In this document: positions 1 to 30,109 of the stretch, piece after piece
Layout of the letters: the number at the start of each line of letters is the position of its first letter
How positions within the stretch are numbered: position 1 is the first letter of the stretch
NCBI GenBank assembly: GCA_964366905.1
Contig: CAYIVQ010000003.1
Location: forward strand, 1 to 39,180
Origin: an uncultured Candidatus Saccharibacteria bacterium
GTDB taxonomy: Bacteria > Patescibacteriota > Minisyncoccia > GWC2-36-17 > WO2-46-25
Direction: 5' to 3'
Length of the DNA: 39,180 bases
Notes under the pieces: generated by a model
What the model was told of the DNA's origin: nothing
What the model saw: only the letters and a program-made list of their open reading frames with translations
Database searches by the model: none
Program-made: the position numbers and the translations under genes

Positions 1-309
1 TTTGATTTAAAAACAGTCAAAACATCAAAACCCAAAGCCGTTATTTTACTTTGTCGTTTCCCAGCGGCAGGGAAGCGGCGCATCCTGATGATATAACACC
101 AGCTTCCTCTTATCAGAAATTAGAGGAGCCGATGGCAAGAATTTAAATTAAACTCTTGCGAAAGCAAATGAAGGAGCAAATAGCGAAGCTACCGCTCTTT
201 TTGCTTGTGTAAATAAGTTTGCACTTATCTTTTTACCGCTGTTTTTCGACGAAACGGCAAGTCGGCTTGCATATTTTAAATGTTCTCTCTGTCAAAGCCC
301 AACATCCCC
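1..309 (-). ncRNA. ssrA: tmRNA (SsrA), 3' part cut off by the window edge
   Basis: The minus strand read from 309 starts GGGGATGTTGGGCTTTGACAGAG, which fits the conserved tmRNA 5' end (GGGG..G...GG.TTyGAC). A GCA codon ~88 nt in opens a short frame, ANLFTQAKRAVASLFAPSFAFARV then TAA, a candidate tag. It lies directly downstream of smpB on the same strand. The T-arm and CCA end would lie beyond position 1. Confidence 0.6.
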
Positions 310-367: not shown

Positions 368-805
368 CTACAAGTTTCTATGAATTTCTCTTTCCGCTTC
401 TCTCTTTCTGATTAATTCTCTTTTCTCGAATTTCTTTTTTGAACGCGCCAATCCGATCTTCAGTTTTATTTTACGATTTGAAGTATATACGGAAATAGGC
501 GCTAATGTCAAGCCTTTTTGCGATGTTTTGCCCGTGAGTTCGTTGATTTCCTCTTTGCGAAGCAATAGTTTTCTGGTTCTGTCTTGTTGGTACCAGTTTG
601 GCGTGTTTTTAGGCTGATATGGCGGGATAACAGCGTTAACCCAAAATGCTTCGCCGCCTCTTATTATAACAAACGATCCTTTTAAGCTCGCCAGCCCTTT
701 TAATATAGCTTTCACTTCAAAACCATGCAGTTCAATGCCGGCATCGTAAGTTTCCAGTATTTCATAGTCGAAAAGCGCTTTTTTATTGTCTGTAAGAGTT
801 GGCAT
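368..805 (-). CDS. smpB: SsrA-binding protein SmpB
   Basis: 145-aa ORF. The N-terminal KKALFDYEILETYDAGIELHGFEVKA and the basic C-terminal tail are typical of SmpB. It is adjacent to the tmRNA. Confidence 0.9.
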   Translation of the reverse strand: MPTLTDNKKALFDYEILETYDAGIELHGFEVKAILKGLASLKGSFVIIRGGEAFWVNAVIPPYQPKNTPNWYQQDRTRKLLLRKEEINELTGKTSQKGLTLAPISVYTSNRKIKLKIGLARSKKKFEKRELIRKREAEREIHRNL

Positions 806-897: not shown

Positions 898-1095
898 TTA
901 TTCTCCCCCCTTTTGCACATAATTTCTCACAAACTCTTCCGCATTTTCTTCAAGCACATCATCTATTTTGTCCAGCACATCATTTATGTCTTTTTTTAGT
1001 TTCTCGCCTTTTTGAACCGTTTCAGGATTTGCTTTTACTTCTTCTCTTTTTTCTTCTTTTTCGTGACTCTTCTTTTGGACTTGCTCTTTTCCCAT
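898..1095 (-). CDS. pup: Prokaryotic ubiquitin-like protein Pup, C-terminal GGE form
   Basis: The C-terminus DVLDKIDDVLEENAEEFVRNYVQKGGE closely matches the Pup signature (IDDVLEENAE.FVR.YVQKGG[QE]), and the N-terminal half is disordered and charged. A strong SD (AAAGGGAGGTG) sits about 4-6 nt before the ATG at 1095; the ORF track starts one codon earlier at a GTG. Confidence 0.88.
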   Translation of the reverse strand: MGKEQVQKKSHEKEEKREEVKANPETVQKGEKLKKDINDVLDKIDDVLEENAEEFVRNYVQKGGE

Positions 1096-1167
1096 CACGC
1101 ACCTCCCTTTAAGGTTTGATTATAGTTTACCATGAAATCAATAAAACACAAGAATACAACGCTTTTT

Positions 1168-1197
1168 TTGACTGCGGCGCCATTTTTCATGTAATAT
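1168..1197 (+). promoter_or_regulatory. Putative sigma70-type promoter of ileS, giving a near-leaderless mRNA
   Basis: TTGACT (1168-1173), an 18-nt spacer, then TAATAT (1192-1197). The ATG at 1206 is 8 nt after the -10 element. Confidence 0.4.
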
Positions 1198-1205
1198 GTG
1201 TTTAT

Positions 1206-4200
1206 ATGGATAACATAGAGAAGGAAATAAAAACGAAATCAAAAATCGCGTTAATGGAGGAAGCGGTTCTTGATTGGTGGGATAAAAACGATGTATTTCA
1301 GAAAAGCTTGGATAAGCGCCGCAAAGGCAAGCCGTTTGTTTTCTACGAAGGCCCGCCCACCGCCAACGGAATGCCGCATCCTGGGCATGTGATGGGGAGG
1401 TGTTTCAAAGATATTTTCTTGCGCTACAAATCCATGCGCGGATATTTTGTGGAGCGTCATGCCGGCTGGGATACGCACGGCTTGCCTGTGGAAATCGAAG
1501 TGGAAAAACAGCTTGGCATCAAGTCAAAGCCGGAAATCGAGAAATTCGGCGTCGCGGAATTTAATCGCCTTTGCAAACAATCTGTTTGGAAATACAAAGA
1601 CGAATGGGAAAAGCTGACAAAGCGGATCGGTTTTTGGCTGGATATGGAGCACCCGTATATTACTTATGAAAATAAATATATTGAAACTCTCTGGTGGGTT
1701 ATAGGGCAAATTTTTAAAAAAGGGCTTTTGGTCCAGGATTATAAAGTCATGCATTATTGCGTTCGTTGCGGTACCGGATTGTCGTCGCACGAAATCGCCC
1801 AAGGCTACAAAGTCGTTCAAGATAAATCTGTTTATGTGAAATTTCGGCTCAAGTCGGAAGCGAATTCGGAGAAAAAGATTTTAAAAAAGATGCGAAGCGG
1901 GTTTAAATTCGATGAGCCAGATATTCATGAAGCGAAAGAATATTTTTTGGTTTGGACCACCACTCCATGGACTCTGCCTGCCAATGTAGCTTTAGCTGTC
2001 AATCCGAAGCTTATTTACGCGCGGGCGCGGAAAGACAAAGAAGTTTTAATTTTAGCTAAAGATTTGCTGAAAGCATTGGGAGACGGATGGGAAGTGATTG
2101 AAGAATTCTCGGGCAAAGAATTGCTCGGCGAAGAATATCACCAGCTTTTTGAATTTTTAAAACCGGAGAAGAAAGCGTTTTTTGTCGCGGCCGGGGACTT
2201 TGTTTCCGCTCAAGACGGCACCGGCATTGTCCATATAGCGCCCGCGTACGGCGAAGACGATATGCAAATCGCGCGTGAATATGATTTGCCGGTTTTGCAT
2301 CCGGTTATGGAAAACGGCCAGTTTGAAGCGGCTATCCCATGGCAAGGCAAATTCGTGAAGAATGCCGATCCGGAAATAACCGAAGATTTGAGAAATCGCG
2401 GGCTGCTTTTTAAAGAAGAAATATATGAGCATGAATATCCGTTTTGCTGGCGATGCGGCACTCCGATTTTGTATTACGCGAGAAAGTCGTGGTTTATAAA
2501 GATGTCAAAGTTAAAGCAAAAAATCATCGCCAATAATAAACAGATAAATTGGGTTCCCGCTCATCTGAAGGAAGGCAGGTTCGGAGAGTGGCTTTTGGAG
2601 TTGAAAGATTGGGCGTTTTCGCGCGACAGGTATTGGGGCACTCCATTGCCGATTTGGCAGTGTGGAAAATGCGGGGATACGCAAGCTGTATCCGGCATTG
2701 CCGAGCTTAGCCGGCTGAGCAGGTTTAAAAACAGATATTTCATCATGCGGCACGGCAGAGCGGTGAGCAATGAAAGAGGCTTTGTCGATCTTTCGCACTC
2801 CGATAATCATGTTACCGAAAGCGGAGCAAAAGACGCGGTGAAATTACTTAAAAATTTTAAAAAGAAATTTTCTGATTTAAAATTTGACTTTATTATTTCT
2901 TCTCCGGTGCTTCGCGCCAGAGAAACCGCTGATATTGCTTCTGATTTTTTCGGCATTGCCAAGTCCGGTATTTTTACCGATCCGGCGCTTAGTGAAATCA
3001 ATGTCGGAATTTTTGACGGTAAATCCATAGAAGAATACCATCGGTATTTTGCCTCGCCGGAAGAAAAATTCTTCAAAGCTCCGCCGGATGGCGAGAATTT
3101 AAATGATGTTAAAAAACGCGTTACGGAGTTTATCAAAAAAGAAGAATCAAAATACACGGGCAAAAATATTTTAATAGTAAGCCACGAATATTCTTTATGG
3201 ATTTTAGAAACCGCGCTTGACGGTTTGGATAATTCGGAAATATTGGAACGCAAGCTGGGAAAGAAAGGCGACTATATAAGCACAGGAGAGATCAGAGAGA
3301 TTATGTCTGGAGAATTGCCTTTGAACGCGGAAGGCGAACTGGATTTGCATAAGCCGTATATAGACAATATTAAAATCGGTTGCAAAAAATGCGGCGCTGA
3401 AATGGACAGAGCTCCGGAAGTAACGGATGTCTGGTTTGATTCCGGGGCGATGCCTCTGGCGCAAACGGGTTTTCCGTTTGCGCAAATCTCAAATCTCAAA
3501 TCTCAAATCTCAAATACATACAGCAATGTGGATTATAAAAAACTTATCAAACAAATTCCGTTTCCGGCTGATTTTATTTGCGAGGGCGTAGATCAGACAA
3601 GGGGATGGTTTTACACTATGCTCGCTGTCTCCACTCTATTGGAAACAGGCGCGCCGTATAAAAATGTGGTTTCAACCGGACATATTCTTGATAAATTAGG
3701 GAAAAAAATGTCCAAGTCAAAGAAAAATTATGTTGATCCGACGGAAATCGCCGATAAGTATGGAATTGACGCGTTGAGATGGTATTTTTTTACCGTTAAT
3801 TCGGTGGGAGAGCCAAAGCGTTTTGACGAGAAAGATGTTTCGGACTCGCAGAGAAAATCAGTGATGCTTTTACTGAATATTTATAATTTTTTTGAATCTT
3901 ACGCCAGCTTTTCAAAAAAAGAAGCGGTTTTGCCGCAACAACAGTCGCTTACTCTGTTAGACGAATGGATTTTATCCAGATTACATGAAACTATCGCCGT
4001 TATGAACATTGCCTTAGATGAGTATGATGCTATGACCGCTTCTAGAAGTTTAGCGTCTTTTTTGGATGATTTTTCAACTTGGTACTTGAGAAGGTCGCGA
4101 AGCAGATTTCAGCACCCTAAAAACAAAGCCGATTTGAACGCGGCATCAGCCGTATTTCAATATGTTTTTGAGAACGCGTTAAAATTAGCCGCCCCTATTA

Positions 4201-4799
4201 TGCCGTTTGTCACGGAACATATCTGGCTGAAGTTTCATAATCAAAGTATACATTTGGAAAATTATCCTCAATCCGGCAAAAAATACATTGATAAAAAGCT
4301 TGGTTATGATATGATAAAAGTTAGAGAAATAGCCGCAATCGCGTTGAAAAAACGCGCTGAAGCGGGTGTAAAAGTCAGACAGCCGTTATCGGAATTACGA
4401 ATCAGGAATGACGAATCAGGAATTAAAAACAAGGAAGATTTGCTGAATATTATAAAAGAAGAGGTGAATGTTAAGAAAGTGTGTTTTGATAAAAAATTAG
4501 AAGATGATGTTTGGCTGGATGCCAATATCACGCCGGAATTAAAAGAAGAAGGCATTATCAGGGATGTTGTCAGAAATATACAGCAATTAAGAAAAGAAGC
4601 TGGATTAACAAGCAAAGATGTCATTTTGATAAAATATTTTGCCGAAGCGGAAGCGGGCAAGACGCTGGCGAAATTTCAAAAACAAATCAGCAAACAAACA
4701 TTAGCAAAGGAAATGATTGCGGTTAAGCGAGATGATTTAACAAAATCAAAGGAGATTGATTTGGAGGGAATAAAAGTCTGGATTCAAATTAACTCTTAG
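1206..4799 (+). CDS. ileS: Isoleucine--tRNA ligase carrying a nested ~205-aa domain insertion
   Basis: Class I motifs are present: PPTANGMPHPGHV (HIGH-type), KMSKS, the CP1 editing region, paired CxxC zinc knuckles (WQCGKCGD and CKKCGAEM) and WFDSG. The start is taken at M31 (1206), because the upstream 30 codons overlap the promoter. Confidence 0.93.
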   Translation: MDNIEKEIKTKSKIALMEEAVLDWWDKNDVFQKSLDKRRKGKPFVFYEGPPTANGMPHPGHVMGRCFKDIFLRYKSMRGYFVERHAGWDTHGLPVEIEVEKQLGIKSKPEIEKFGVAEFNRLCKQSVWKYKDEWEKLTKRIGFWLDMEHPYITYENKYIETLWWVIGQIFKKGLLVQDYKVMHYCVRCGTGLSSHEIAQGYKVVQDKSVYVKFRLKSEANSEKKILKKMRSGFKFDEPDIHEAKEYFLVWTTTPWTLPANVALAVNPKLIYARARKDKEVLILAKDLLKALGDGWEVIEEFSGKELLGEEYHQLFEFLKPEKKAFFVAAGDFVSAQDGTGIVHIAPAYGEDDMQIAREYDLPVLHPVMENGQFEAAIPWQGKFVKNADPEITEDLRNRGLLFKEEIYEHEYPFCWRCGTPILYYARKSWFIKMSKLKQKIIANNKQINWVPAHLKEGRFGEWLLELKDWAFSRDRYWGTPLPIWQCGKCGDTQAVSGIAELSRLSRFKNRYFIMRHGRAVSNERGFVDLSHSDNHVTESGAKDAVKLLKNFKKKFSDLKFDFIISSPVLRARETADIASDFFGIAKSGIFTDPALSEINVGIFDGKSIEEYHRYFASPEEKFFKAPPDGENLNDVKKRVTEFIKKEESKYTGKNILIVSHEYSLWILETALDGLDNSEILERKLGKKGDYISTGEIREIMSGELPLNAEGELDLHKPYIDNIKIGCKKCGAEMDRAPEVTDVWFDSGAMPLAQTGFPFAQISNLKSQISNTYSNVDYKKLIKQIPFPADFICEGVDQTRGWFYTMLAVSTLLETGAPYKNVVSTGHILDKLGKKMSKSKKNYVDPTEIADKYGIDALRWYFFTVNSVGEPKRFDEKDVSDSQRKSVMLLLNIYNFFESYASFSKKEAVLPQQQSLTLLDEWILSRLHETIAVMNIALDEYDAMTASRSLASFLDDFSTWYLRRSRSRFQHPKNKADLNAASAVFQYVFENALKLAAPIMPFVTEHIWLKFHNQSIHLENYPQSGKKYIDKKLGYDMIKVREIAAIALKKRAEAGVKVRQPLSELRIRNDESGIKNKEDLLNIIKEEVNVKKVCFDKKLEDDVWLDANITPELKEEGIIRDVVRNIQQLRKEAGLTSKDVILIKYFAEAEAGKTLAKFQKQISKQTLAKEMIAVKRDDLTKSKEIDLEGIKVWIQINS
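2721..3335 (+). other. Histidine-phosphatase (PGAM/SixA/CobC superfamily) domain inserted between the two zinc-knuckle halves of IleRS
   Basis: YFIMRHGRAVSNE (RHG motif), SSPVLRARETA, LSEINVGIFDG, PPDGENLNDVKKRV and ILIVSHEYSL follow the full motif order of the histidine phosphatase superfamily. The flanking IleRS sequence resumes at LDLHKPYID. Confidence 0.8.
3483..3517 (+). repeat. Heptanucleotide tandem repeat (caaatct x4 plus caaatac) inside the ileS coding sequence
   Basis: Direct reading gives caaatct at 3483, 3490, 3497 and 3504, and caaatac at 3511. It encodes QISNLKSQISNT in a variable linker after WFDSG. Confidence 0.95.
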
Positions 4800-4801
4800 T
4801 T

Positions 4802-5371
4802 ATGTATAGTACCACCGGTATTGTTATCAAAAAACAGAATAAAGGAGAAAACGATCAAGTTTTAACGCTTTTTACCAAAGATTTTGGGAAAGTTGATTTT
4901 TTGTGCCGAGGCATTCGCAAAGGATCCGCGAAGCTCACAGGCCATCTTGGGCTTTTTAATCTCTCTAACATTAATTTTGTTTTAGGCAAGCAATTCAAAG
5001 TCATAACCACCGCGGTGGAAATCGAGAGTTTTATCAAATTAAAGAAAAACAGTTCTAAGATCAGCGCCGCTTCCCATGTAGCGGGGTTAGTGGATCAATA
5101 CACCATTTCCGAAGAAACCGATGGAGATATATTTCATCTTGGCTTAGGAGCGCTGGATTATCTAAATAGAAAAGAAATGAAAGCGCTTGAATTGAAATTT
5201 TTTCTTCGTTATTTTGAGTTTAAGTTTTTGAGTCTGCTTGGATACGAACCGGAAGACAAAACAATAATAAAAGCGTTCACCGACAGCCAAGTTTCGTTGA
5301 CGGAAAATGACCTCAATAAGATAGAGGAAGATTTCAGTAAATATTTCAGGAATATTTACAGTAAAGTATAA
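4802..5371 (+). CDS. recO: DNA repair protein RecO (short form)
   Basis: The N-terminal OB-fold pattern TTGIVIKKQNKGENDQVLTLFTKDFGKVDFLCRGIRK is typical of RecO. Confidence 0.75.
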   Translation: MYSTTGIVIKKQNKGENDQVLTLFTKDFGKVDFLCRGIRKGSAKLTGHLGLFNLSNINFVLGKQFKVITTAVEIESFIKLKKNSSKISAASHVAGLVDQYTISEETDGDIFHLGLGALDYLNRKEMKALELKFFLRYFEFKFLSLLGYEPEDKTIIKAFTDSQVSLTENDLNKIEEDFSKYFRNIYSKV

Positions 5372-5373
5372 TC

Positions 5374-5475
5374 ACCTAACTGATGGGATGATATTTTTTG
5401 TGCGCCTTTATTATATTTGTAGCCAAAGGATCCCACTGCCAACCCGATACAAAAAATATCATCCCGCAGTTAGGT
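5374..5475. repeat. ~100-bp inverted-repeat element (27/28-bp arms, 47-nt centre) between recO and the next gene
   Basis: acctaactgatgggatgatattttttgt (5374-5401) matches the reverse complement of acaaaaaatatcatcccgcagttaggt (5449-5475), apart from one small indel. Confidence 0.8.
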
Positions 5476-5489
5476 TCATTATTATATAA

Positions 5490-7367
5490 ATGAGTAAATT
5501 AGAAGAATTTGAGCGAAAACTATATAAGCGAGGCGAGGCGGAACCGCAAAAACAAGATTCTTTCAAAGCCGGAGAAGAAAGTCTGATAGCGACCAAACAT
5601 GAATGGGAACGCGAGAGAGGCAAAGCAAGCGGTTTATCCGGAAGAGCCAAAAAGATATTGGCAGGCCTGTTTTTTTTGTTTTTAGCCGCTATTTTTCTTA
5701 GCGCCGGAGCATATTATTACTATACCGAACAAAGCGGGTTTAACAAAAACGATGCTGTCGTCAACATAATAGGATCGGATAGATTAGTCGCTGGCGAAGA
5801 AGTTTCTTTTGAAGTTATGTTTAAGAATAACTCCAAATCGATTTTAAGGGATGCGGAAGTTATGCTCGAATGGCCGGAATATTCCGTTCTTTCCGGTGAA
5901 GGCCAAGATTCCGCGCTGATAACTAGATCGGAGCTTGGAATGATTGTCCCTTTTCAAGAGAAGAGCGTCAGTTTCAAGGGCAGGATTTATGGCGCGGTCG
6001 GCGATGAAGCAAAAATAAAAGCAGTATTTCGATATATTCCGGAGAATTTCAATTCTCCATTCGAAGGTAGCAAGGAATTTGATGTGACGGTTGTCGCCAG
6101 TCCTCTAGCTTTGAATATAAACGCGCCTCCTCAGATAGTGGCGGACAAAGAGGTGGATATCAAACTGGAATATCAAAATCAATCGGAAGCTAATTTTCCA
6201 AACAGCAGAATAAAAATCGCTTACCCGAGCGGTTTCAAGTTTATTTCCGCTGATCCGTCGCCGATGTCGGATAATAATATTTGGGATCTTGGCTCCATCA
6301 ATGGCAGAGGCAATGGCGTTATCAGTATAAAAGGAAGTTTTTCCGGCGCTCAAGGGGAGGTTAAATCTTTGCGCGCGGAAATCGGTTCTTTGCAGAATGA
6401 AGAAAAATTCATTTCTTACGCTTCCATAGAAAGCGCCGTTGCCATTGCTTCATCGGCTCTGATGGTATTTCAAACGGCCAACGGCTCCAGGGATTTTACC
6501 GCTAATCCGGGCACGGTTTTGAAATACAATATAAAATACAAAAACACCAGCGATTTCCAGATCCCCAACACGGTGATTTTAGCACAGATAGACCCGGCTC
6601 TTATTGATATCAAAAGCCTGAATATTTCGTGGGGGTCTTTTGATGGCAGAACCAGTTCAATTATATGGAATGAGGTTGGAGTGACTGATTTGGCGATACT
6701 TGATCCGAAAGAAGAGGGGGAAGTTTCTTTTTCCGTTAAACTTAACTCGGTATTTCTCCCGAAAAGTTTTTCCGATAAAAATCTTAAAGTTATTTCTATA
6801 GCCAAAATCACTTCTTCTTCAGCCCCGGAAGGACTAAAAGGACTGCCTATCGGGAACGAAGACACATTGGAAGTTAAAATAAACACGCAGTTTTCTTTCA
6901 CAGAACGCGCTTATTTCAGCGGCGGATTAGTTGAAAACAGCGGACCGTTGCCGCCGAGAGTTGGAGAAAAAACCACATATACCGTCTTTTGGCAGTTAAC
7001 AAATACCACAAATGATGTTGAAGGAGTTGAAGTGACTGCGGTAGTTCCGCCAAACATAGAGTGGACCGGCGTGACATATCCGCAGGACACGGAGATAAGT
7101 TATGATAAAAATTCAGGAGTGATTAAATGGAACGCAGGCAAAGTTATCACCGGCACGGGCATCTTGGTTCCCGCCAAACGTGTTGATTTCCAACTTGCTT
7201 TCACTCCGGGACTTTATCATGTCGGGCAGATGTTTAATCTGATGTCCGGCGCGTCTTTGAAAGGTAAAGACAGCTTTACCGGCATGGATATTCAAAAAGA
7301 AGTCCCGCTTGTAAATTCCGACCTTTTGAGTACACTTACAAAGGAGCAATCAGTAGTAACACAATAA
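5490..7367 (+). CDS. Membrane-anchored hypothetical protein with a large beta-rich extracytoplasmic region (DUF11/CARDB-like repeats suspected)
   Basis: 625-aa ORF with a charged N-terminus, one TM helix (ILAGLFFLFLAAIFLSAGAYYYY) and repetitive beta-strand-like segments. No catalytic motif was recognised. Confidence 0.6.
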   Translation: MSKLEEFERKLYKRGEAEPQKQDSFKAGEESLIATKHEWERERGKASGLSGRAKKILAGLFFLFLAAIFLSAGAYYYYTEQSGFNKNDAVVNIIGSDRLVAGEEVSFEVMFKNNSKSILRDAEVMLEWPEYSVLSGEGQDSALITRSELGMIVPFQEKSVSFKGRIYGAVGDEAKIKAVFRYIPENFNSPFEGSKEFDVTVVASPLALNINAPPQIVADKEVDIKLEYQNQSEANFPNSRIKIAYPSGFKFISADPSPMSDNNIWDLGSINGRGNGVISIKGSFSGAQGEVKSLRAEIGSLQNEEKFISYASIESAVAIASSALMVFQTANGSRDFTANPGTVLKYNIKYKNTSDFQIPNTVILAQIDPALIDIKSLNISWGSFDGRTSSIIWNEVGVTDLAILDPKEEGEVSFSVKLNSVFLPKSFSDKNLKVISIAKITSSSAPEGLKGLPIGNEDTLEVKINTQFSFTERAYFSGGLVENSGPLPPRVGEKTTYTVFWQLTNTTNDVEGVEVTAVVPPNIEWTGVTYPQDTEISYDKNSGVIKWNAGKVITGTGILVPAKRVDFQLAFTPGLYHVGQMFNLMSGASLKGKDSFTGMDIQKEVPLVNSDLLSTLTKEQSVVTQ

Positions 7368-28594: not shown

Positions 28595-30109
28595 ATGAAC
28601 AAGGAACAGGAAAAAATCGGTAAATTTATTGCGGATTTGCGGCATAAAAAAGGGCTGACGCAGGAAGAGTTTGCCAAGCTTTTGGGGACAAGTCAGAGCG
28701 CGGTAACGCGTATGGAGAAGGGCGAGCAGAATTTCAGCACTGAAATGCTTTCCAAAATCAGCCGCGTTCTCAACAAAAGCATCATTAGTTTGTCCGGCGA
28801 AGCGCTTAATTTAAAAATCGAAGGCGGCCGAAAGCTTTCCGGAACGGCGACCATTAAAACTTCCAAGAACGCCGCCGTGGCTCTGCTCTGCGCTTCTCTT
28901 TTGAATTCCGGCAAAACCGTTCTCAAAAATATTCCCCGCATTGAGGAAGTAAACCGCATCATTGAAGTGCTTGTGAGTCTGGGTGTTTCGGTGAAATGGA
29001 CTAATGGCGGTGATCTTGAAATTGTTCCTCCGAAAAAAATTGACATTGAGAATACCAATGTGGAAGCGGCTATGCGTACGCGCAGTGTCTTGATGCTTTT
29101 GGGGCCGCTGGTTCACTTGCTAGATAAATTCCAACTTCCTTATCCGGGCGGTTGCAAGCTCGGTACGCGCACAGTGCGGCCACATCTTTTCGCGCTTGAA
29201 AAACTGGGCGTGGATATTGTCGCGGCCAAAGGGAATTATCATGTTTCGGCCGGCAAGCTTCATCCGTCAGAAATCGTGCTTTACGAATCGGGCGATACGG
29301 TGACGGAAAATATTTTGATGGCCGTCGCTAAAATCAATGGCACGACCATTATTAAATTTGCTTCGGCCAATTACCAGGTGCAGGATCTATGTTATTTTCT
29401 GGTTGAGCTTGGCGTAAAAATAGAAGGCATCGGCACGACTACTCTTGTTATCCACGGCAAACCGGAAATTGATATGATGGTGGAATACTCTCCAAGCGAG
29501 GATCCGATTGAAGCGATGCTATTTTTATCCATCGCGGCAACCACCAATTCTTCAATCATCATTGAGCGGTGCCCGATAGATTTTTTGGAATTGGAGCTTT
29601 TGAAGCTTGAAAAGATGGGATTTAAATACAAAATTTTAAAGCGATACAAAGCGAAAAACGGACAGGCGAATTTAGTTGATATCCAAACGCTTCCTTCAAA
29701 ACTGAAAGCATTGGAAGAAAAAATATACGCCCGCCCGTTTCCCGGACTTAACATCGATAATCTGCCGTTTTTCGTGCCGATCGCCACGCAAGCCAAAGGG
29801 CGGACTTTGATTCACGACTGGGTTTTTGAAAATCGGGCGATCTATTACGCGGAATTGGCCAAGCTGGGCGCCAATGTTATTTTGGCCGATCCGCACCGGG
29901 TGTATATAGAAGGGCCGACAGAACTAAAGGCTGCAGAAGTGGTCTGCCCGCCCGCCTTGCGTCCGGCGGCGATTATTTTGGTCGCGATGCTTGCCGCCAA
30001 AGGCACATCAATTTTACGCAATGTTTATTCAATTAACCGAGGATACGAGGACTTATGCGCGCGCTTAAACAAGCTCGGAGCCAAAATCCAACCACTCCGG
30101 GAATTTTAA
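28595..30109 (+). CDS. murA: XRE-type helix-turn-helix domain fused to UDP-N-acetylglucosamine 1-carboxyvinyltransferase (MurA)
   Basis: Residues 1-65 (IGKFIADLRHKKGLTQEEFAKLLGTSQSAVTRMEKGEQNFSTEML) form a canonical HTH_XRE domain. The remainder is MurA-like (KTSKNAAVALLCASLL; the catalytic-loop PGGCKLGTRTVRPH with Cys retained; C-terminal YEDLCARLNKLGAKI). Confidence 0.85.
   Translation: MNKEQEKIGKFIADLRHKKGLTQEEFAKLLGTSQSAVTRMEKGEQNFSTEMLSKISRVLNKSIISLSGEALNLKIEGGRKLSGTATIKTSKNAAVALLCASLLNSGKTVLKNIPRIEEVNRIIEVLVSLGVSVKWTNGGDLEIVPPKKIDIENTNVEAAMRTRSVLMLLGPLVHLLDKFQLPYPGGCKLGTRTVRPHLFALEKLGVDIVAAKGNYHVSAGKLHPSEIVLYESGDTVTENILMAVAKINGTTIIKFASANYQVQDLCYFLVELGVKIEGIGTTTLVIHGKPEIDMMVEYSPSEDPIEAMLFLSIAATTNSSIIIERCPIDFLELELLKLEKMGFKYKILKRYKAKNGQANLVDIQTLPSKLKALEEKIYARPFPGLNIDNLPFFVPIATQAKGRTLIHDWVFENRAIYYAELAKLGANVILADPHRVYIEGPTELKAAEVVCPPALRPAAIILVAMLAAKGTSILRNVYSINRGYEDLCARLNKLGAKIQPLREF

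Follow-up and report, generated by a model that had tools for sequence, protein, structure and literature searches.

Few enzymes have been studied as thoroughly as the aminoacyl-tRNA synthetases, whose accessory domains have repeatedly brought new biology to light, such as editing, signalling and complex assembly. In the class Ia synthetases, a catalytic hydrolase, the CP1 editing domain, is nested in the Rossmann fold and attached by two linkers. We follow the CP1 nomenclature as it appears in PMC11685878 and PMC10485003. A precedent for an isoleucyl-tRNA synthetase (IleRS) with an extra catalytic domain is the family NF040702 (“ileS_w_GNAT”), but the domain is an N-acetyltransferase (GNAT) and not a phosphatase. 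Histidine phosphatase (HP) domains are joined to nucleic-acid or nucleotide enzymes in PRK07238/Rv2228c (mycobacterial RNase H/acid phosphatase) and in the Nudix-HP protein MutT1 (NF052459), but in these proteins the domains are arranged end-to-end with other partners and are not nested. The histidine phosphatases PhoE/YhfR, CobC and PspA are free-standing and have no link to a synthetase. A literature search limited to open-access text revealed neither a phosphatase within or beside IleRS nor a phosphatase partner of any bacterial synthetase, which agrees with the remark in the initial annotation of this DNA that no described synthetase with a nested phosphatase was known to its author. In a survey from 2026 that annotated the canonical domains in about 96,000 IleRS sequences, a term search of the text gave no mention of a phosphatase, Patescibacteria or CPR.

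The IleRS encoded in the window (the whole 39,180-nt stretch of DNA that was analysed) has the same domain order, motifs, zinc knuckles and DUF5915-type C-terminus as IleRS2 of Priestia megaterium (8c8u/8c8v) and IleRS of Thermus thermophilus (1ile). The closest PDB sequences were the IleRS2-like 8c8u (E = 1e-240) and 1ile (1e-230), compared with 1e-94 for the IleRS1 structure 1ffy, and a fold search with Foldseek ranked the solved IleRS in the same order, with 8c8u/8c8v and 1ile as the best matches. The identity to the solved IleRS2 is about 32-36% in the fold alignment, with a Foldseek TM-score of 0.81-0.91 (target-normalised). Besides the nested domain, the protein has smaller additional loops, which span residues 216-245 and 760-781. 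It does not belong to NF040702, for which it scored 324 bits compared with a cut-off of 1999, and its HP domain scored below the cut-offs of PRK07238 and NF052459. The HP resembles PhoE/YhfR, CobC and PspA in its fold, in the Arg-His...Arg...Glu...His set, in size (~190-210 aa) and in the PhoE-like motif that follows the acid, but it is only 20-25% identical to them, and their cap is a few residues longer. While the CP1 domain is universal and ancient and cleaves aminoacyl esters, the HP is lineage-specific, is located in a different connective peptide and is predicted to use phosphoryl-transfer chemistry.

The host gene and the insertion

The IleRS is encoded by a single continuous frame, which as an ORF with a TTG start extends over 1116..4799 on the forward strand. 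Alignment with the homologues shows that they use the ATG at 1206 as start, and the residue numbers given here follow this ATG unless otherwise stated. The whole protein scored 875 bits against the NCBIfam equivalog TIGR00392 (ileS), exceeding its cut-off of 621.4. The Pfam domains of the host enzyme are tRNA-synt_1 (split), Anticodon_1 and DUF5915, the last of which is located at the C-terminus and represents the type-2 organisation. Both CP1 editing motifs, TTTPWTLPAN and GTGxVHxAPxxGxDD, were found. The columns of the HIGH-type, KMSKS and editing motifs are conserved in 119 aligned relatives, those of the editing motifs being invariant or nearly so, and each of the zinc cysteines C486, C489, C726 and C729 is present in every relative. 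Judging from these motifs and the four cysteines, the host IleRS looks intact (Table 1).

Table 1. Positions of ileS, the nested phosphatase domain and their sequence motifs in the window
Feature	Residues	Position	Strand	Basis or remark
ileS, type-2 (eukaryote-like) IleRS with nested phosphatase		1206..4799	+	1197 aa + stop
HIGH-type signature HPGH, synthetic site	58-61	1377..1388	+	Read from sequence
Editing-domain motifs TTTPWTLPAN ... GTGIVHIAPAYGEDD		1956..2261	+	Read from sequence
Zinc knuckle half 1, WQCGKCGD (C486, C489)	484-491	2655..2678	+	
Whole insertion relative to canonical IleRS2, both linkers included	504-709	2715..3332	+	
His_Phos_1 (histidine phosphatase, HP) domain	508-700	2727..3305	+	Pfam, HMM, AlphaFold2, Foldseek
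Catalytic R515-H516 (RHG motif)	515-516	2748..2753	+	119/119 relatives
Catalytic R570	570	2913..2915	+	119/119 relatives
E597, predicted general acid	597	2994..2996	+	E in 80, D in 39 of 119 relatives
Catalytic H660 (SHE motif)	660	3183..3185	+	119/119 relatives
Zinc knuckle half 2, CKKCGAEM (C726, C729)	726-733	3381..3404	+	
DVWFDSG, where the catalytic core resumes		3426..3446	+	Sequence, 8c8u alignment
KMSKS signature loop	834-838	3705..3719	+	Sequence

The initial annotation had noted that about 205 residues interrupt the IleRS between two zinc-knuckle halves. This was confirmed, with boundaries at 2715-3332 instead of 2721-3335. The alignment to 8c8u breaks at residue 503 of the query and 476 of the chain and restarts at residues 710 and 484, respectively, with ~205 residues here in place of the ~7 that form the loop between the two CxxC halves in canonical IleRS2. 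The site is the tip loop of the second zinc knuckle, which is the last connective-peptide element ahead of the DVWFDSG core, and the IleRS of three other loci (L006, L010 and L003) contain only a short loop at this position. The annotation had also interpreted the arrangement as a domain within a domain and had proposed to look for the same insertion point in orthologues. Both points held: the insert lies in one frame with IleRS sequence on either side, which resumes at LDLHKPYID...DVWFDSG, and the insertion point is shared by the database relatives.

Family, fold and active site of the nested domain

The nested domain is a complete branch-1 histidine phosphatase of the PhoE/CobC/PspA type and not of the phosphoglycerate-mutase type. 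It matched the Pfam family His_Phos_1 (PF00300) with 95.9-100.3 bits, far above the cut-off of 21.7, with E-values of 3.1e-27 when the whole protein was searched and 1.4e-28 when only the insert was, so the profile search proposed at the outset was positive. The match covers ORF residues 542-714 when numbered from the TTG start, and the family HMM gave the domain a score of 221 bits. The motif set on which the initial annotation had based its assignment was recovered in full and in the order given there: MRHG (residues 514-517), LRARETA (569-575), LSEINVG (595-601), DGENL (628-632) and VSHEY (658-662). It had further proposed that the insert forms a separate lobe, and a confident histidine-phosphatase fold was obtained in the models. 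The AlphaFold2 model of the insert alone has a pLDDT of 96.4 and a pTM of 0.93, and in the full-length model (pLDDT 90.4, pTM 0.84) both linker blocks have a pLDDT of 93-95. The PhoE-like cap, consisting of about 32 residues in two helices, is kept.

With Foldseek, the insert model matched PGM, PhoE, PspA, CobC and Rv2419c structures with probability 1.00 and TM-scores of 0.70-0.78. These proteins were mixed among the top PDB matches, both by sequence and by fold, with nearly equal scores, and no specificity could be read from them. Neither the nested nor the free-standing HPs reached any of the NCBIfam equivalog cut-offs. For the CobC model TIGR03162 (cut-off 162.9), the scores were 65-69 bits for the nested HP and 77-104 bits for the free-standing relatives, and for the SixA model TIGR00249, a partial match confined to the N-terminal part gave 36 bits compared with a cut-off of 74.5. 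No match to the anti-phage models in PADLOC was obtained for the nested or the free-standing HPs, and no second HP gene is present in the 39,180-nt window.

The initial annotation had suggested that the domain may be active, unless related genomes showed that its catalytic residues are freely substituted. No such substitution was seen, as R515, H516, R570 and H660 do not vary among the 119 relatives. From knowledge of the superfamily, we take H516 to be the phospho-acceptor. The same catalytic pattern is found in 280 HP domains from all insertion sites, including both copies of the two-copy proteins, and position 522 is occupied by N or Q in 111 of the 119 relatives. The phosphatase thus retains its full catalytic set and is apparently active, although there is no enzyme assay and both the activity and the phospho-histidine chemistry are inferred from sequence. 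As indicated by the invariant columns, purifying selection acts on the HP and zinc-knuckle sites.

Distribution and evolution in CPR bacteria

All of the best 120 full-length database relatives, which are 45-89% identical to the IleRS of the window, carry both PF00133 and PF00300, and among the top 150 cluster representatives at 50% identity, at least 130 cover the two flanks and the HP in one stretch. Independent sequences with the flank-HP-flank architecture number more than 250 and come from assemblies of NCBI, JGI, ENA and Logan. In sister lineages, the HP is instead encoded by a separate gene for 187-200 aa that is located directly 5' of an uninterrupted ileS. At L006 and L010, the only two junctions that were read, the stop codon of the HP gene overlaps the start codon of ileS (ATGA). 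About 19 further GTDB species representatives have an HP gene 5' of ileS, which in most of them abuts or overlaps ileS and in three of them is located 0.6-1.4 kb away. The nested IleRS-HP represents, in fused form, a two-gene module that is conserved in the CPR/Patescibacteria.

The gene order around the unfused HP, smpB and argS-(HP)-ileS-recO, is otherwise unchanged, and the only recurring neighbours are smpB, an infC-like gene, argS, recO, a gene for a DUF11 protein and glyS. An ORF of 193 aa, which resembles a small regulator, is occasionally located between argS and ileS. The HP gene also lies just after argS, and its adjacency to ileS could represent conserved synteny of translation genes, a counterpoint to a partnership with IleRS.

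The HP is also nested at two other sites in IleRS, B and C, in proteins from bacteria named as Peregrinibacteria, Abawacabacteria, Peribacteria and Gracilibacteria, as verified at the level of motifs, and some IleRS contain two intact HP copies. Each of the three insertion sites borders the second half of the catalytic fold and the KMSKS/stem-contact region. In a control set of about 73 IleRS2 loci outside the CPR, none had an HP within 3 kb of ileS. Six weaker-scoring HP relatives were the only ones without ileS in the flanks that were fetched (L054, L055, L058-L060 and the fragments L061-L062). A search with the HP alone revealed no other fusion partners, such as ArgRS, and returned free-standing HPs or IleRS fragments, but this search seems to favour proteins of a length similar to the query and is weak evidence on other fusions. 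In the sequence data, the phosphatase-IleRS link is widespread in CPR bacteria and not a curiosity of one genome.

The distances of the HP and IleRS are correlated (Mantel r = 0.26; none of 2000 permutations reached this value), and the unfused and nested states are interleaved in both the HP and the IleRS trees. Since the trees were inferred by neighbour-joining from short alignments and the correlation is weak, the number and direction of the fusion and fission events are uncertain. Some MAGs carry taxon labels that cannot be relied on. For example, L052 is labelled Gammaproteobacteria, but its neighbours include a short transketolase-like ORF of about 286 aa, ribulose-phosphate epimerase, RpiB and RuvA, which appear CPR-like by eye.

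Alternative explanations

An assembly chimera is ruled out for practical purposes, as are an artefactual frameshift and an intein or other selfish intervening element. Nothing was found in favour of these readings, although the first half of ileS is somewhat higher in GC than the insert. Identical junctions recur in hundreds of independent assemblies, the frame is unbroken, and the GC and GC3 values of the insert (0.39 and 0.40) match those of the 3' portion of ileS (0.39 and 0.39). The boundaries of the insert are ordinary linkers that are conserved among the relatives, and Pfam identified His_Phos_1 alone in the insert and no Hint/intein or endonuclease domain. It is also most improbable that a glycolytic, cofactor-dependent phosphoglycerate mutase (dPGM) was fused to IleRS. 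The archaeal dPGM model NF038349 heads the NCBIfam matches, and PGMs are among the top Foldseek and PDB matches, but the score for NF038349 was 67-71 bits for the nested HP, and 67-105 bits over the nested and free-standing HPs together, well short of the equivalog cut-off (225), and pgm_1 gave 31 bits compared with a cut-off of 81.7. Enzymes of the dPGM family are recognised by ERHYG...K after the acid, G-N after the second His and a C-terminal tail. All three signatures are missing in the nested HP, which has the PhoE-like EINVGIFDGK at E597, E-Y directly after H660 and no such tail. We give equally little credit to a decayed or purely structural insert that serves as a pseudo-enzyme, spacer or dimerisation module. 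Some histidine phosphatases are dimeric, and one may speculate that the two-copy IleRS mimic a dimer, but the catalytic residues remain invariant in 119-280 domains whose overall identity is no more than 35-50%.

Two other explanations accept an active phosphatase and differ in its role. It could be a housekeeping metabolic phosphatase, acting on sugar phosphates, phosphoserine or compounds of the riboflavin/cobamide type, that is merely co-expressed with IleRS or stabilised by it and has no link to aminoacylation. The closest characterised relatives (PhoE, CobC, PspA, Rv2419c and a riboflavin-pathway phosphatase) act on small metabolites, no IleRS-specific feature was identified in the HP pocket, and the genomes of CPR bacteria are small and their operons tight. 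However, such a passenger would be expected at a terminus, and the HP is instead nested in three internal loops of the catalytic/stem-contact region, sometimes in two copies. The link to IleRS also spans at least two CPR classes, and the relatives without ileS in the genome scan were limited to the six weaker-scoring ones mentioned above. This explanation is unlikely, and only slightly more so than one in which the HP is a protein or RNA phosphatase that frees IleRS of an inhibitory phosphate close to the KMSKS loop or tRNA-Ile of a terminal phosphate that blocks charging. The position of the three insertion sites around the second catalytic half agrees with such a repair function. Protein phosphatases are known within the superfamily (SixA, Sts-1 and PGAM5), and the toxin kinases HipA and HipT, which target the synthetases GltX and TrpS, provide an analogy. 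On the other hand, the match to SixA is weak and partial, the PhoE-like cap suggests a pocket and not an open surface, and no kinase partner was found in the conserved neighbourhood. The pI of the HP provides no guide to RNA binding: the median is 9.2 for domains at site A and 6.6-7.1 for those at sites B and C, and the HP of the window has a pI of 6.3, values that are not diagnostic.

Functional implications

We favour the reading, with a probability of roughly 0.7, that the nested PhoE/CobC/PspA-type HP is the fused form of the CPR HP-ileS module and is tied to the reaction cycle of IleRS. Adjacency in the unfused state, fusion at three sites and duplication, with the active site always intact, are a classic signature of functional interaction. 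Together, the unfused upstream gene, the other nesting sites, the double copies and the lack of a nearby HP at the roughly 73 IleRS2 loci outside the CPR argue for a functional partnership of phosphatase and IleRS. The coupling of the HP to IleRS is the supported part of this proposal, and the substrate is a guess.

By inference, each of the two domains would fold on its own, the linkers being well ordered, and the zinc knuckle would be re-formed at the base. A phosphate ester, presumably from a substrate tied to the IleRS reaction cycle, would be held by R515, R570 and H660 and attacked by H516, and the resulting phospho-histidine would be hydrolysed with E597 as the acid. A small nucleotide-type phosphate is a possible but far from secure candidate for the substrate, namely AMP or an adenylate-derived by-product of the adjacent synthetic site, and its removal would relieve product inhibition or clear the by-product. 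Dephosphorylation of AMP would be wasteful, and it leaves the occurrence with IleRS only unexplained. The other guess, a phosphate carried by tRNA-Ile or by the IleRS protein, is less likely. Of the substrates on which the initial annotation had speculated (a phosphorylated tRNA end, Ap4A and aminoacyl-adenylate), the last two are chemically unlikely for the HP because they are not phosphomonoesters.

As far as the open-access literature goes, the unfused HP-ileS neighbours, the two alternative nesting sites, the two-copy enzymes and the absence from about 73 non-CPR loci are new. CPR bacteria represent a large uncultivated part of the bacterial tree, and their translation machinery is known as unusual. 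Only tentatively, and at somewhat less than even odds, do we extend the preferred reading to the suggestion that the HP is an obligate physical partner of IleRS in these bacteria, as a subunit of its own that is translationally coupled or as a domain nested at any of the three sites. Such a partner would perform a step in isoleucine charging or its control without a counterpart in model organisms, possibly by taking a phosphate off tRNA-Ile or IleRS or by breaking down a nucleotide by-product where it arises, at the synthetic site. Recombinant proteins would allow a direct test of this hypothesis. Should the coupling prove real, tRNA charging would gain a control or clean-up step of a new kind, and CPR biology a lineage-specific marker and handle.

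Host enzyme and inserted domain

The gene that carries the insert encodes a protein of 1197 residues with its start at the ATG at position 1206, as set by homologues, and residues are numbered from there. The protein scored 875 bits against TIGR00392 (ileS; cut-off 621), and its nearest solved relatives are type-2 isoleucyl-tRNA synthetases (IleRS2; 8c8u, E = 1e-240; 1ile, E = 1e-230), whereas the match to type-1 enzymes is much weaker (1ffy, E = 1e-94). It contains a HIGH-type motif (HPGH), KMSKS, the CP1 editing motifs and, according to Pfam, a DUF5915-type C-terminus. The host is an ordinary IleRS2.

The initial annotation had placed a histidine phosphatase (HP) domain at 2721-3335, between the two halves of the zinc knuckle. 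These coordinates are correct within two codons, the motifs that it listed are all found in the sequence in the order described, and the nested position is borne out by Pfam, where tRNA-synt_1 is split around His_Phos_1, and by the gap in the 8c8u alignment. The alignment to the P. megaterium IleRS2 stops at residue 503 (chain residue 476) and restarts at residue 710 (chain residue 484), so that about 205 residues stand in place of about seven between the CxxC halves. In PMC10485003, the catalytic core of this enzyme comprises residues 40-168 and 513-632, and the last connective-peptide element before the core resumes is named CP2. PMC11685878 gives a four-part scheme of CP core, CP1, CP2 and CP3. 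Since the core resumes at 513-632, the interrupted knuckle (8c8u chain residues ~457-505) falls in the last connective-peptide element; which CP label fits it is our inference.

Coordinates of features in the window and in four database loci
Feature	Nucleotides	Strand	Residues	Basis or remark
tmRNA gene	1..309	-		Rfam RF00023, 58 bits; truncated by window start, adjoins smpB
smpB	368..805	-
Pup-like protein (prokaryotic ubiquitin-like protein)	898..1095	-		65-aa ORF between smpB and ileS
Long ORF	1116..4799	+		ileS; protein start at the ATG at 1206
Insertion at start of CP1/editing region	1851..1940	+	216-245	~24-30 residues relative to P. megaterium IleRS2; lysine-rich
Zinc knuckle, first half, WQCGKCGD			484-491	sequence
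HP insert	2715..3332	+
HP motif MRHG			514-517	sequence
HP motif LRARETA			569-575	sequence
HP motif LSEINVG			595-601	sequence
HP motif DGENL			628-632	sequence
HP motif VSHEY			658-662	sequence
IleRS resumes, LDLHKPYID			712-720	sequence
Zinc knuckle, second half, CKKCGAEM			726-733	sequence
IleRS core, DVWFDSG			741-747	sequence
Extra loop	3483..3548	+	760-781	~17-22 residues, QISNLKSQISNTYSNVDYKKLI; pLDDT 64-75
HTH_3 + EPSP-synthase/MurA-fold protein	28595..30109	+		504 aa
IleRS of locus L040	2145..6248			1368 aa; HPs at sites A and B
IleRS of locus L064	3962..8257			1419 aa; HPs at sites B and C; adjoins SLH-domain protein
ileS of locus L057 (Yanofskybacteria)	3434..6911			two overlapping ORFs; break at HP start
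ileS of locus L048	3504..6931			two overlapping ORFs; break just after site A/B

The profile search supports the family assignment, with His_Phos_1 matched at E = 3e-27 by the whole protein and at E = 1.4e-28 by the insert alone, and a Pfam score of about 100 bits where the threshold is 21.7. When the insert was modelled alone (59-sequence alignment; pLDDT 96.4, pTM 0.93), it matched HP structures with probability 1.00 and TM 0.70-0.78, including the phosphoglycerate mutases (PGM) of P. falciparum and S. pombe, PhoE, PspA, CobC, Rv2419c and a riboflavin-pathway phosphatase. The nearest solved proteins by sequence are the S. pombe PGM (3e-9), PhoE (9e-9) and CobC. Neither the insert nor its free-standing relatives reached any curated equivalog threshold (dPGM_arch, 67-105 against a cut-off of 225; CobC, 65-104 against 163; PspA, 47-85 against 350; SixA, 33-36 against 74.5). 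The guest is an ordinary branch-1 histidine phosphatase. Judged from its sequence and from established knowledge of the superfamily, we read it as a phosphatase and not as a phosphoglycerate mutase: the acid E597 is followed by INVGIFDGK as in PhoE, the mutase pattern ERHYG...K is absent, the second histidine is followed by E-Y rather than G-N, and there is no C-terminal tail.

The full-length model (119-sequence alignment) has a mean pLDDT of 90.4 and a pTM of 0.84, with values of 91-97 in the HP region, 93-94 in the linker blocks 501-510 and 701-710, and 50-55 in its least confident part, the lysine-rich insertion near CP1. The IleRS part superimposes on IleRS2 structures with target-normalised TM 0.81-0.91, and short strands at 483-486, 492-494 and 732-735 flank the insert, as expected for the knuckle. 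Certain positions of the linker after the HP are conserved in nested forms alone (F701, L704, P705 in 118/119 and N/D707 in 117/119). We infer from the model, without recourse to its coordinates, that the insert folds on its own as a lobe and sits at the tip of the knuckle in a fixed orientation. Convergence of the cysteines at the base of the knuckle, a point that the initial annotation had put up for checking, and the orientation of the active site rest on no coordinates.

The window has further features. The Pup-like ORF matches PF05639 (78 bits, E = 9.5e-22), ends in ...YVQKGGE and was missed by ORF lists at ≥80 aa. Among Mur ligase genes lies an unusual fusion, the protein in which an Xre-type helix-turn-helix at the N-terminus (HTH_3, E = 1.7e-16) is joined to a complete EPSP-synthase/MurA-fold domain (E = 2.3e-49). 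No tRNA genes were found in the whole 39 kb window.

Conservation of the nested form

The first homology search gave only proteins of at most 526 aa although closer full-length relatives exist, hits of query-like length seemingly being favoured. The search with the full protein listed 120 matches (1116-1361 residues, 45-89% identity), named as Azam-, Wildermuth-, Nealson-, Jorgensen-, Zambryski-, Lipton- and Pacebacteria, and every one contains PF00133 and PF00300. With a flank-insert-flank profile, at least 130 of the top 150 proteins among 50%-identity representatives match in one continuous stretch. The catalytic Arg/His/Arg/His residues, previously noted as present in the window protein, are R515, H516, R570 and H660, and each is invariant across 119 aligned full-length relatives (sharing 48-89% identity with the window protein), as are the zinc ligands C486, C489, C726 and C729. 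Either E or D occupies position 597 throughout, 111/119 have N or Q at position 522, and E630, R638 and K653 show at least 97% conservation. The GC and GC3 of the insert equal those of the downstream half of ileS. The same insert in the listed relatives, the invariant residues and the matching GC in practice rule out both an assembly chimera and a decayed domain. Judged from sequence, two intact catalytic machines are contained in one chain, and both are under strong selection.

The unfused form and other fusion sites

The first five free-standing relatives to be found (187-196 aa) share 36-44% identity with the insert and are as near to the nested domains as these are to each other (up to 58%). 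The contigs of two of the five were identified (L006, L010); in both, the end of the HP gene overlaps the start of ileS (ATGA), and ileS has a short canonical knuckle loop without the insert. GTDB species representatives were then scanned with the family of free-standing HPs, which gave at least 52 loci; the scan was pattern-based, and its counts are samples rather than a census. The HP gene is located 5' of an uninterrupted ileS in at least 19 loci (Staskawiczbacteria and others), abutting or overlapping it in 16 and lying 0.6-1.4 kb away in three (L019, L022, L034). In at least 24 others, the HP is nested at the window's site in an intact ileS (counting L056, where the HP match is split), at least one (L040) has two nested copies, and in at least two (L048, L057) the nested ileS is broken into two ORFs, for which frameshift errors, pseudogenes and a true split of the gene are all possible. 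Lower-scoring free-standing relatives had no ileS in the fetched flanks (L054, L055, L058, L059), one relative forms the N-terminus of a 501-aa protein (L060), and two loci gave only fragment matches (L061, L062). As a control, about 73 IleRS2 loci with 3 kb flanks from Firmicutes, Asgard archaea and others contained no relative of the HP.

Apart from the HP, unfused and nested loci share one gene order, in which infC-like and smpB lie on the minus strand and are followed by argS, (HP), ileS, recO, a DUF11 protein and glyS; of this order, the window carries smpB and the ileS-recO-DUF11-glyS portion. A recurrent ORF of ~190 aa, likened by eye to a small Cas2/PaaX-like regulator, sometimes lies between argS and HP/ileS (L029, L030, L034, L036). 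Several MAG taxon labels are doubtful, such as many "Saccharibacteria" labels in the scan. One contig labelled "uncultured Gammaproteobacteria" (L052, CAZSQN010000001.1) carries a nested-HP IleRS. The neighbours, identified by eye as a short transketolase-like ORF (~286 aa), ribulose-phosphate epimerase, RpiB and RuvA, read as CPR-like, and the label is probably wrong.

Mapping of HP domains onto the IleRS core profile, with the insert removed, revealed three fusion sites: site A, the zinc knuckle, as in the window (~255 proteins); site B, flanked by HYPF and FPADxIxEGxDQTRGWF, in proteins named Candidatus Peregrinibacteria; and site C, which follows KMSKS with the stem-contact helices and precedes the anticodon-binding domain, in representatives from GTDB that bear the labels Abawacabacteria, Peribacteria and Gracilibacteria (L065-L069, L071). 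Sites B and C were confirmed from flanking motifs in two database proteins (P0373 and P0291). The extra loop of the window IleRS is the site-B loop, where the Peregrinibacteria enzyme holds a whole phosphatase domain, and it appears to be a permissive insertion spot. Some enzymes carry two copies, and every combination of sites is represented: A and B (P0177/L040, P0345), A and C (P0290), B and C (P0346/L064, P0380) and a tandem at A (P0312, P0358, P0376). In each of these enzymes, both copies keep their core catalytic residues, and only the site-A copy of P0345 alters two peripheral conserved positions (E630 and R638 to Q).

Neighbour joining was applied to the IleRS cores and, separately, to the HP domains; unfused and nested forms are interleaved in each tree, and the two trees have several terminal clusters in common. 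The HP and IleRS distance matrices are correlated (r = 0.26; reached in 0/2000 permutations). The pattern fits a single HP lineage inherited with ileS, with repeated switches between unfused and fused forms, but the trees are crude and we claim neither direction nor number.

The inferred HP-IleRS partnership and its possible function

Precedents exist for a nested domain in a synthetase (the CP1 editing domain), for an extra domain in IleRS (an NCBIfam model for GNAT-containing IleRS) and for an HP joined to another domain (RNase H or Nudix); what is new is the combination of an IleRS2 host and an HP guest. The nested proteins are annotated in public databases merely as isoleucine--tRNA ligase or class I tRNA ligase family protein. 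No mention of a phosphatase in IleRS was found in open-access text, and a term search of a 2026 domain-architecture survey of 96,219 IleRS sequences gave none.

By the standard mechanism of the superfamily, phosphate would be bound by R515, R570 and H660, with phospho-H516 as the intermediate and E597 as the acid. Both the related proteins and the cap, which is PhoE-like, suggest that the HP acts on a small molecule; the substrate remains a guess. AMP is the only phosphomonoester in the IleRS cycle; aminoacyl-adenylate and Ap4A, suggested in the initial annotation, are poor candidates because they are not phosphomonoesters. HP domains that act on nucleotides are known, namely CobC and the HP domain of mycobacterial MutT1, and the MutT1 model name is among the HP profile matches. 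We tentatively favour a nucleotide-type ligand linked to the synthetic site, with a probability of about 0.35. A phosphate carried by a macromolecule, either tRNA-Ile or IleRS in the vicinity of KMSKS, is somewhat less likely, and a housekeeping role of the HP unrelated to IleRS a little less likely again. Beside these readings stands the genetic association of HP and IleRS, which is repeated and lineage-wide, as neighbouring genes, fusions at three sites and duplications. We infer that the partnership is functional, and that it is probably physical also in the lineages where the two proteins are unfused.
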